Assembly (NCBI RefSeq): GCF_003790525.1
Contig: NZ_CP033635.1
Direction: 5' to 3' (one strand)
DNA: 64,000 bases
Origin: Escherichia coli
GTDB lineage: Bacteria; Pseudomonadota; Gammaproteobacteria; Enterobacterales; Enterobacteriaceae
The notes below the pieces were generated by a model. That model was given only the letters and a program-made list of their open reading frames with translations, made no database searches and was not told the origin of the DNA. Below are positions 12,913-14,287 of the stretch, in pieces (position 1 is the first letter of the stretch; every line of letters starts with the position of its first letter). Position numbers and translations under genes: made by a program.

Positions 12913-13155
12913 TTACCATTCCTCGCGCAGCTTACGCTGGTATTCGACACCATCTTCCTCACTCCCTTGCCAGATGCCAAAAGCACTGGCTCTTGCTGTT
13001 TGCGATTGATTTACCAGGTATTGATCTACCGCTTCCCGTAATAGCTCCGCACGAGGAAGATTACGCTGCACCTCGAGATCATCAAGTTGCTTAAACAACT
13101 CATTCGATAAATTGAGTAAAATTCTGCCCATATCTATACCTGCCAGAGAGTTCAT
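12913..13155 (-). CDS. yiiF: Small ribbon-helix-helix (CopG/Arc/MetJ-like) DNA-binding protein; true start may be the internal Met at 13131
   Basis: 80-aa ORF; RHH-like [12 protein letters not shown]...[13 protein letters not shown]; paralog of the adjacent ORF. Confidence 0.75.
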
Positions 13156-13220
13156 AAATATCTCGCCAATATCATTTTTGAATCTATGGAGAGAAAAGTA
13201 CCCTTGCCGAATCTTTAAAG

Positions 13221-13289
13221 AAAGCGCATTTACGCATCATTTTTTATTTTTGCGAGGCGTTTTCCAGATACGATGTAACAGTTGCAGTT
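13221..13289 (-). promoter_or_regulatory. Upstream element of yiiF; one copy of a duplicated ~70-bp sequence (likely promoter/operator)
   Basis: About 80% identical to 13660-13728 when aligned by eye; lies 65-135 bp upstream of the yiiF start. Confidence 0.5.
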
Positions 13290-13373
13290 ATTATAAGTTC
13301 AAGTAAAACAACCTTGTATTAATATCAGAATAAGGGCATCTGGTTTTTATATTCAAGAATAATATATTTTTTG

Positions 13374-13619
13374 TCATTCCTTATGCTCCTTACACTGATC
13401 ATCAACAACTACTGTCTCACCCCTTTGCCTGCCTCCCTTTGCTTTACGCACCGGGAATTGCTGACGTTCCAGATATTGCTCTACCGCTTCGCGTAAAATT
13501 GCAGATCGTGAAACCTTACGCCAGCCCCTAAGCTTGTTCAGCCGTTTAATTGCCTCTTCTGATAAATGAAGAAAAACCGTATTCATCGCCATTACCAATA
13601 CCTTACATATATTACTCAT
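13374..13619 (-). CDS. yiiE: Small ribbon-helix-helix DNA-binding protein; true start may be the internal Met at 13592
   Basis: 81-aa ORF; LHLSEEAIKRLNKL...RSAILREAVEQYL parallels yiiF. Confidence 0.75.
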   Translation of the reverse strand: MSNICKVLVMAMNTVFLHLSEEAIKRLNKLRGWRKVSRSAILREAVEQYLERQQFPVRKAKGGRQRGETVVVDDQCKEHKE

Positions 13620-13659
13620 TAATGTATGTGCGAAAATTACGCCGAAAAATCATTTAAAA

Positions 13660-13728
13660 AAAGCGGATTTTTGCATGCTGTTTTGTTTTTGCGAGACGTT
13701 TTCCAGAAATAATAAGAACGTTGCAGTT
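13660..13728 (-). promoter_or_regulatory. Upstream element of yiiE; second copy of the duplicated ~70-bp sequence
   Basis: AAAGCGGATTTTTGCATG...TTTTGCGAGACGTTTTCCAGA...GTTGCAGTT matches the 13221-13289 copy. Confidence 0.5.
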
Positions 13729-14287
13729 GTTTCATTTGTTAATCAAAAATGGTTTAGTTATCGCCCAGGATGAGATATGGGTGCTATAAATATATTATAT
13801 TCAGGGATATTTATTTTTTGATTGGGTCTTCATTTGCATAATCTGAATGGTGTACCCGAAAAACGTCAGCATCCTAACAGCACCAGGATTTAAGGTGAAA
13901 TTTAACATCCATCACAGACCGTTCAATGCTGCCACCAACCGGTCTTTACTTGCTCGTCGTTATAATTTTGTTGGTAACAGTTTGGGAAACAAGGAATTCC
14001 TTCCGGAACACCCCCGGTATCATCCGATAGCATTGACGTCAATCATCGGCGCGACGATGAGTTTTTTTAATCGCATCATAGGGTGGCAACGGTCAGCACG
14101 ATACGGGTCATAGCAAAACTCCTGCACAGGCGGCCACTATGCCGCTTTCACAGGAGTTCTGAATGCTGGTGCTTTCTGTATGGCATCGCCATGCCCCTCG
14201 CGGCTAAGCGCCTGCACACATCTCTCTTTGAATGTCATTTTTGCAATGCATTGTCCGAATTCTGATAATCCTAATGAGTTTTACCCG

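Follow-up and report, generated by a model that had tools for sequence, protein, structure and literature searches.

A tandem duplication of a vapB control region and antitoxin gene at the yiiE–yiiF locus of Escherichia coli, with a conserved distal box upstream of both copies

Type II toxin–antitoxin modules usually possess an operator that overlaps the promoter. Some type II antitoxins are kept as solo transcription factors, and there are three-gene modules with a separate regulator, represented by omega-epsilon-zeta, in which omega is a ribbon–helix–helix (RHH) protein, and by paaR-paaA-parE. The system closest to the locus considered here is VapBC of Klebsiella pneumoniae MGH 78578 (KPN_04185, annotated as “yiiF”), the structures of which (7BY2 and 7BY3) are attributed to Kang et al. 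(J Med Chem 2020) where they are cited in PMC11117207. The transcription start site of KPN_04185 was mapped to 4585660, 4 nt 5' of the annotated ATG (Kim et al. 2012, PMC3415461, Table S4). In this work we analysed the tandem genes yiiE and yiiF, together with the ~79-bp element repeated upstream of each, in a 64-kb stretch of DNA (the window) of E. coli SMS-3-5, for which these gene names are correct. The alignments show that the region is a tandem duplication of the control region and antitoxin gene from a chromosomal vapBC module, which in Enterobacteriaceae is located between fabY and fdhE, and that the ~79-bp repeat represents the upstream portion of the control region that the ancestral vapB had. 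The genes and the repeated elements are located as follows:

yiiF, 12913-13155, minus strand: orphan vapB antitoxin gene, 80 amino acids (open reading frame and RefSeq)
yiiE, 13374-13592, minus strand: vapB duplicate, 72 amino acids in RefSeq; the open reading frame 13374-13619 encodes 81 amino acids
Distal upstream element, yiiF copy, 13214-13292, minus strand: found by repeat search, shuffle significance and cross-genus alignment
Distal upstream element, yiiE copy, 13653-13731, minus strand: found by repeat search; also retained by E. fergusonii, E. albertii and the cryptic Escherichia clade

The family-typical start of yiiF is the ATG at 13131, which gives 72 amino acids (MGRILL...) versus the 80 annotated. 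An earlier note on this DNA, made from the letters alone, had described yiiE and yiiF as tandem paralogous RHH genes, and protein alignment bears this out, with 39% identity over 56 residues (BLASTP, E = 6e-11). Pfam RHH_1 matches YiiE at 1.5e-11 and YiiF weakly, at 17.8 bits, which is under the family cut-off. The upstream identity of about 80%, estimated in that note by eye, is 53/69 (76.8%) over the same intervals (13221-13289 and 13660-13728). The full elements, 439 bp apart, are identical at 61 of 79 positions (77.2%) without gaps. The local alignment of the upstream regions scores 53, while dinucleotide shuffles (n = 2000) give a mean of 12.0, a standard deviation of 1.7 and a maximum of 24 (z = 23); the best score against the remainder of the window is 16. 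Among 5413 complete E. coli genomes, the element occurs in at most two copies per genome, with a median of 2.

The duplicated unit of control region and gene, which the earlier note had also supposed, extends well beyond the element. Two homologous units of ~450 bp each lie head-to-tail, at 12913-13373 (yiiF) and 13374-13820 (yiiE), and their outer limits are marked by a further repeated block:

Outermost repeated block, yiiF unit, 13347-13371, minus strand: starts 2 bp past the yiiE stop codon and marks the unit junction
Outermost repeated block, yiiE unit, 13795-13819, minus strand: 5' limit of the duplication

The yiiF unit starts right behind the stop codon of yiiE, and the arrangement thus represents a head-to-tail tandem duplication of ~450 bp. 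In the global alignment of the units, similarity is found in the outer block, in the 79-nt element, in the region 5' of the start codons and in the whole coding sequence, where homology runs in frame to the stop codon and includes the C-terminal tails, though BLASTP left these tails unaligned. Identity in 40-nt windows peaks in the distal element (75-80%) and in the LREAV-QYL codons (75%), being 33-60% elsewhere and 53.8% overall for the codon-aligned coding sequence; the conservation of the element equals that of the best-conserved part of the coding sequence.

The two genes have also recombined. E. albertii carries a single hybrid gene, composed of the YiiE N-terminus up to LREAV followed by the VapB tail, with vapC directly behind it (L018:2495-2719), and the reciprocal YiiF(N)-YiiE(C) hybrid is found on short metagenome contigs (protein P0079). 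The crossover of both hybrids falls into the common LREAV-QYL codons, and these hybrids show recombination in the best-conserved stretch of yiiE and yiiF. The hybrids also show that the yiiE promoter and the YiiE DNA-binding domain can precede a working toxin gene. In E. fergusonii, opposite-strand foreign genes (a DUF6708 protein and others) are located between yiiE and yiiF (L019:2906-4519, L020:2906-3355); the inter-unit spacer is thus also an insertion site in this species, with the yiiF copy of the element kept downstream of the insert.

The assignment of yiiF to vapB is based on domain, tail and synteny. YiiF matches PDB 2k5j (“uncharacterized protein yiiF”) at 1e-37, and its residues 1-72 align end to end with chain A of 7by2 (also 7by3) at E = 7e-26, while chain B of these structures is “Ribonuclease VapC”, which matches the PIN protein encoded beside YiiF homologues. 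An RHH domain, as expected for VapB, is found in YiiE by Pfam and in YiiF by the 2k5j and 7by2_A matches, and the YiiF tail shares with 7by2_A the G(I/L)W...EEDG.EYQR.LR.EW motif of the toxin-binding tail. An overlapping PIN gene (121-127 amino acids) stands behind the YiiF homologue at the same site, beside fdhE, in eleven Citrobacter loci and in Salmonella enterica subsp. diarizonae; in Klebsiella and Kluyvera the order is fabY, alpha/beta hydrolase, vapB, vapC, fdhE, and in Cedecea and an alphaproteobacterial metagenome-assembled genome the vapB-PIN gene pair occupies other sites. More widely, full-length YiiF relatives form 472 clusters (HMMER, 1.8 billion representative proteins). Among three loci of distant relatives, two possess a co-directional overlapping PIN gene, and the third lacks a downstream partner, having only a convergent FitA-like RHH-PIN pair.

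Within E. coli, yiiF is present in 4663 of 5426 complete genomes, and intact vapC in 57 of them, for example in 2016C-3878, where the order is yiiE, vapB, vapC, fdhE; the cryptic Escherichia clade has yiiE, vapB and vapC likewise. On this evidence yiiF is the vapB orthologue, which in this window stands outside any functional module. The earlier note had described both genes as orphan CopG/ParD-type antitoxins. They are indeed toxin-less genes of antitoxin type; yiiF, more exactly, is VapB, not ParD, with vapC remnants downstream. Identity with ParD or plasmid CopG was rejected, since the nearest relatives, in structures and in genomes alike, are VapB proteins that have PIN toxins as partners; in NCBIfam, other RHH families matched under the threshold only, and “CopG family” in the annotation is a generic RHH label only.

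The PIN gene expected downstream of a VapB gene is missing from the window. Alignment to E. coli 2016C-3878, which has intact vapC, leaves the following:

5' vapC remnant, ~24 nt, 12890-12913, minus strand: its ATG overlaps the yiiF stop; the FDTN (Phe-Asp-Thr-Asn) codons are left after a 13-nt deletion
3' vapC remnant, ~56 nt, 12621-12676, minus strand: ...VTRNTRD..VVTPYEL and stop; 15-nt deletion
REP/BIME-type sequence in place of the vapC interior, 12677-12889, no strand assigned: recognised by Rfam, no alignment to vapC

With vapC downstream of yiiF reduced to 24-nt and 56-nt remnants around REP sequence, yiiF is orthologous to VapB yet belongs to no working module here, and the alignment shows that yiiF was orphaned when REP sequence replaced the vapC interior. 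Rfam ES036 matches at 12787-12829 with 39.6 bits, above the gathering score, and naRNA4 matches stay under it; both families look REP-derived, and the REP block matches hundreds of thousands of sites in E. coli genomes. A 101-amino-acid relative from outside the window (P0118) has VapB fused in frame to the last ~22 VapC residues (…KLREEW-YERVTRNTKDFARIPGVMTPYYL), which is an independent deletion of the toxin-gene interior in another lineage. On the antisense strand of yiiF, a published 3'-end map (PMC7815308, supplementary file 2) places a 3' end at K-12 position 4079994 (roughly window 12913-13155), which suggests that convergent fdoGHI-fdhE transcription runs across the REP block and ends within yiiF.

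Against the orphan alleles of K-12 and E. fergusonii, the yiiF allele of SMS-3-5 shows 10-14 non-synonymous and 2-3 synonymous changes, so that the ratio of non-synonymous to synonymous rates (dN/dS) is ~1.3-1.5 on these small counts, while for K-12 versus E. fergusonii it is 0.32. They include a D-to-N replacement at a position predicted to read DNA. This pattern is compatible with relaxed constraint on the allele.

Comparing the locus with K. pneumoniae VapBC, we find the same fabY-fdhE site, a match of full-length YiiF to the VapB chain, the proximal TGATATAC motif and the distal TGGA-N6-CTCGCAAAA core. The window differs in having vapC as two remnants, a yiiF -10 motif without the -7 T, and an extra, diverged copy, yiiE, which is missing from Klebsiella.

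yiiE has had another fate than yiiF. A word-indexed search of 5.8 billion proteins with YiiE gave 114 matches, and all of those with a named source are from Escherichia or Shigella; yiiE is missing from the syntenic loci of the other genera examined. It is an upstream duplicate of vapB, seemingly confined to Escherichia, and its best solved relatives are VapB 7by2_A and YiiF 2k5j. Between E. coli and E. fergusonii, yiiE codons 1-49 (RHH) have 8 synonymous and 1 non-synonymous change (dN/dS 0.03), while dN/dS of the 23-codon tail is 0.4-0.8. For YiiE, the protein alignment ends at residue 45; beyond it the YiiE tail is homologous at the DNA level only, codon for codon, and both tryptophans and the DG.EYQR.LR.EW motif are replaced, so that YiiE lacks the VapB toxin-binding tail. 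Substitution patterns thus show an RHH domain under strong purifying selection and a toxin-binding tail that has decayed.

yiiE is present in 5387 of 5426 E. coli genomes (99.3%), and Nissle-type EcN strains have yiiE without yiiF. By alignment to CopG, the predicted DNA-reading ribbon residues are T, F and H in YiiE, R, L and mostly D in the VapB relatives, and R, L and N in SMS-3-5 YiiF. YiiE is a VapB-derived paralogue that would behave like a solo RHH transcription factor. It resembles the solo type II antitoxins in that YiiE and YiiF keep the RHH domain without a cognate toxin, yiiE being near-universal with its RHH domain selected. In contrast to them, yiiE came from a tandem duplication that took in the antitoxin and all of its control region at a time when the toxin was present. 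yiiE-vapB-vapC persists in 57 E. coli genomes and the cryptic clade; the original antitoxin, yiiF, became a second orphan later. The ancestral Escherichia yiiE-vapB-vapC also recalls the three-gene modules, with an extra small RHH gene before the antitoxin–toxin pair, but this likeness is in gene order alone: VapB keeps its own RHH domain and promoter copy, and yiiE has its own promoter region.

The control DNA of each unit consists of a proximal and a distal part. The proximal part adjoins the annotated start:

Proximal repeat of yiiF, TGATATTGGCGAGATATTT, 13156-13174, minus strand: mutated form of the family motif TGATATACTGGAGGTATAT (allele and genus alignment)
Proximal region of yiiE, AATGAGTAATATATGTAAGGTATTGGTA, 13593-13620, minus strand: positional homologue of the vapB promoter/operator, diverged in sequence

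In the K. pneumoniae sequence, TG-n-TATACT occupies -15 to -7 of the mapped start and represents a near-ideal extended -10 motif. Klebsiella, Kluyvera, Citrobacter, Salmonella and the vapC-linked Escherichia alleles all keep the repeat TGATATAC-N5-GTATAT, which lies over the extended -10 motif and the start site and has TGATATACT as its left arm. The vapC-linked alleles retain TGATATACT, whereas orphan yiiF alleles, including that of the window, read TGATATTGG and have lost the -7 T; the yiiE counterpart has diverged (…GAGTAATATATGTAAGGTATTGG…). In distant VapB-family loci of unrelated bacteria, mostly PIN-paired, a GATATA-type repeat (TGATATA(C/T)...GATAT) lies within 40 nt of the start codon, and all the VapB-family proteins with this proximal repeat have an R-x-(L/V)-x-D ribbon. 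From these data we infer that the proximal repeat is the core promoter and the antitoxin's own operator, and autoregulation of YiiE and YiiF through their proximal repeats seems plausible. The proximal repeat would then have diverged between yiiE and yiiF in step with the DNA-reading residues.

The distal element contains an invariant core:

Core TGGA-N6-CTCGCAAAA, yiiF copy, 13248-13266, minus strand: perfect match
Core TGGA-N6-CTCGCAAAA, yiiE copy, 13687-13705, minus strand: perfect match

Fourteen copies of the element were aligned, namely those of the two paralogues in E. coli, E. fergusonii, E. albertii and the cryptic clade, together with those of Klebsiella, Kluyvera, Citrobacter and Salmonella. 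In 14/14 copies, from five genera, neither TGGA nor CTCGCAAAA varies and the 6-nt gap is fixed. The element spans about -55 to -133 relative to the position matching the mapped K. pneumoniae start, and 80-82 nt separate the core from the proximal -10-like motif, the DNA between them being nearly unalignable across genera. With up to 2 mismatches allowed, the core has two matches only in the window. A third copy, at 14237-14256 on the minus strand just downstream of the 617-amino-acid gene discussed below (GGACAATGCATTGCAAAAAT, 16/20), was put down to chance, as 3 of the 13 specified bases are mismatched and it is not recovered at up to 2 mismatches, the level at which chance gives ~2 matches per window. 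A wider repeat family was rejected as well, there being two copies per E. coli genome, and the “plasmid” matches are megabase-sized records resembling chromosomes filed as plasmids.

We consider it rather probable that the locus is a duplicated vapB unit which has lost vapC, with the proximal repeat as promoter/operator and with a distal core that binds a host protein, neither YiiE/YiiF nor sigma-54. The distal element would act as double-stranded DNA, TGGA-N6-CTCGCAAAA being most probably recognised by a host protein common to Enterobacteriaceae. The strict 80-82 bp spacing suggests that this protein would act in a fixed geometry with the promoter, and it may modulate yiiE and yiiF transcription in parallel. 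The K-12 setting would be that of an AT-rich, H-NS-bound region where SlyA overproduction raises yiiE: G+C is 33-47% at window 13000-16500 versus 51-58% in the flanks, and K-12 yiiE is listed as H-NS-bound and as 2.5-fold up on SlyA overproduction (PMC5797941). A more far-reaching version, which we put forward only tentatively and hold to be rather doubtful as a whole, is that YiiE is a domesticated antitoxin duplicate with a re-specified ribbon, acting on targets of its own as a transcription factor of the core genome, and that TGGA-N6-CTCGCAAAA is a docking site of a host regulator coupling vapBC to a cellular signal, with YiiE on the same signal.

The earlier note had taken the ~70-bp element for an operator of YiiE/YiiF, and an autoregulatory or auxiliary looping operator would agree with several facts: RHH antitoxins as a rule repress the promoters of their own genes, no other non-coding part of either unit is as well conserved as the element, and a constant distance of 80-82 bp to the promoter would fit looping of the DNA between two operators. 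We nevertheless find this role unlikely. The motif that travels with the family across unrelated bacteria is instead the proximal TGATATA(C/T)...GATAT repeat, while the alphaproteobacterial locus lacks the distal core and Cedecea has no more than an approximate form of it. The core also stands ~90-107 bp 5' of the mapped start position. That it serves the two proteins as their own operator is improbable because it is identical before two proteins that differ at 3/3 predicted ribbon positions, and invariant both where yiiF is absent (EcN) and where VapB alone exists. Still less probability is given to an RNA-level element, with a second upstream promoter, a long 5' leader and possibly a short open reading frame (MRKCAFFK / MQKSAFFK). 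Such a reading draws on -10-like hexamers directly 5' of AACTGCAAC in several Escherichia copies (TATAAT before the yiiF copy, TAAAAT before the E. fergusonii yiiE copy) and on an ATG aligned in both E. coli copies; however, the yiiE copy in the window reads TGAAAC at the hexamer, which has no counterpart in other genera. A simple sigma-70 consensus scan of the coding strand of the elements found nothing, and no -10 hexamer inside the element is positionally conserved across genera by eye. A structured RNA or small RNA was rejected, as the Rfam scan has no match in the element, only REP-derived sequences downstream of yiiF, and no fold is conserved on either strand (RNAalifold consensus -2.2 kcal/mol, single-sequence z -0.9 to +1.5). 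The short open reading frame was rejected too: its substitution pattern is non-coding (1 synonymous versus 2 non-synonymous between the paralogues), its lengths are unequal, and it is not conserved outside Escherichia, there being no start in Salmonella or Klebsiella.

That the copies are similar without any function, owing to recent duplication or to gene conversion between tandem repeats, is very improbable in our opinion. The paralogues do recombine, as the E. albertii hybrid and its reciprocal metagenome counterpart demonstrate. However, throughout E. coli, E. fergusonii, E. albertii and the cryptic clade, copies of the element cluster according to paralogue, which means separate evolution since before the species split, and therefore the similarity reflects retention, not recent gene conversion; moreover, the core is equally invariant in single-copy genera, and the flanking non-coding DNA and coding sequence have diverged to 33-60% identity. 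The least credible of the alternatives, to which we give almost no weight, is that the core is a sigma-54 promoter driving both genes from ~85 nt 5' of the ATG. Its TGG-N10-GCA does reproduce the canonical spacing of the invariant -24 GG and -12 GC in 14/14 copies, and glnAp2 also has TCGC at -12. Unlike sigma-54 promoters, the core lacks C after GG (the -24 region reads TGGAAA or TGGATG, not TGGCAC), its invariant block reaches CAAAA, past the bases read by sigma-54, and no enhancer-binding protein gene or other activator gene is nearby. The sigma-54 promoter was rejected on occupancy, despite the fitting GG/GC spacing: neither upstream region is among the K-12 sites from chromatin immunoprecipitation sequencing (PMC4591121), though an fdoI site is listed there, or among the K-12 holoenzyme sites from genomic SELEX (PMC8743547), though fdo-region sites are listed.

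Several points weigh against the reading we prefer, a duplicated vapB unit with a host-protein site in its distal core. No factor could be named for the core, and the SlyA, CytR, PurR, MetJ, NikR, marbox, FadR, IHF and Fis motifs, compared informally by eye, do not fit its invariant positions. The DNA-reading residues are a prediction from the alignment to CopG. With the -7 T lost, SMS-3-5 yiiF may use another promoter. The K. pneumoniae start site is supported by 4 reads (PMC3415461), and yiiE and yiiF are missing from the searched E. coli start-site tables (Cappable-seq, 5'-RACE-seq and sigma-factor network supplements, the largest of them covered in part). In K-12, genomic-SELEX peaks of SlyA and sigma-S are found in the yiiD-yiiE spacer (PMC6134199 supplement, PMC5493296), at an estimated 600-800 bp upstream of yiiE, off the element.

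On the minus strand of the window, yiiE is preceded by fabY (yiiD) and an AT-rich open reading frame of 617 amino acids (14288-16141), and the convergent fdhE ends at 12584, beyond yiiF. The 617-amino-acid frame is intact, although RefSeq splits it into a “transposase” and a pseudogene. Its product has a CX5R-type motif, VMGCKSAKDRT, resembling the active site of SopB/IpgD-type phosphoinositide phosphatases, and no significant match in Pfam, NCBIfam or PDB sequence searches. Of 5426 E. coli genomes, 1061 (O157:H7 included) carry the gene at full length, versus 5387 for yiiE, and ~2000 further genomes, K-12-like strains included, have a ~100-nt remnant of it. The linkage of this gene to yiiE and yiiF, which the earlier note had thought possible, is unlikely as a general feature: with 695 bp between the end of the gene and the annotated yiiE start (13592), read-through may take place in SMS-3-5 but cannot be general to yiiE/yiiF control.

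The fabY-yiiE space is a variable hot spot, which in other strains and species harbours a HigB-like toxin gene (Pfam HigB_toxin, 1e-22) with a NadS-type helix-turn-helix gene, an alpha/beta hydrolase gene, and two small open reading frames of no assigned function. Next to the yiiE element on its 5' side, ~480 bp of non-coding DNA (13740-14221) is common to many E. coli genomes, and by estimate the K-12 SlyA and sigma-S SELEX peaks fall into its counterpart. The divergent alpha/beta-hydrolase gene of Citrobacter, Salmonella and Kluyvera has, ~15-30 nt 5' of its start codon, a nearly perfect palindrome of LexA-box type, CTGTATGGATATACAG (CTGT-N8-ACAG), and in Klebsiella this palindrome has one mismatch, which suggests that the hydrolase gene may be under SOS control. 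A degenerate relic of this box, CTGATATTAATACAAG, is found at window 13313-13328, upstream of yiiF. Farther away, inside fdoI on the plus strand, CTGGCGCGCATTCTGCA (11176-11192) has one mismatch to the K-12 intragenic sigma-54 site IS47 (PMC4591121).

In the open-access full-text literature, we found no description of the yiiE/yiiF paralogy, of the duplicated control region or of the conserved distal box. The presented analysis gives an origin and a testable role to two E. coli genes annotated without function, one a leftover vapBC antitoxin and the other an antitoxin duplicate that turned into a near-universal small DNA-binding protein under strong selection. Living strains demonstrate the stages of toxin–antitoxin decay and of antitoxin domestication: the intact three-gene form, the hybrid antitoxin, the toxin-deleted form, and yiiE alone. 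The control DNA seems to be composed of two layers, a proximal promoter/operator that changed with each protein and a distal box that has stayed constant in all the genera aligned. Naming the factor that recognises the distal box would show how a chromosomal toxin–antitoxin module is linked to host regulation.

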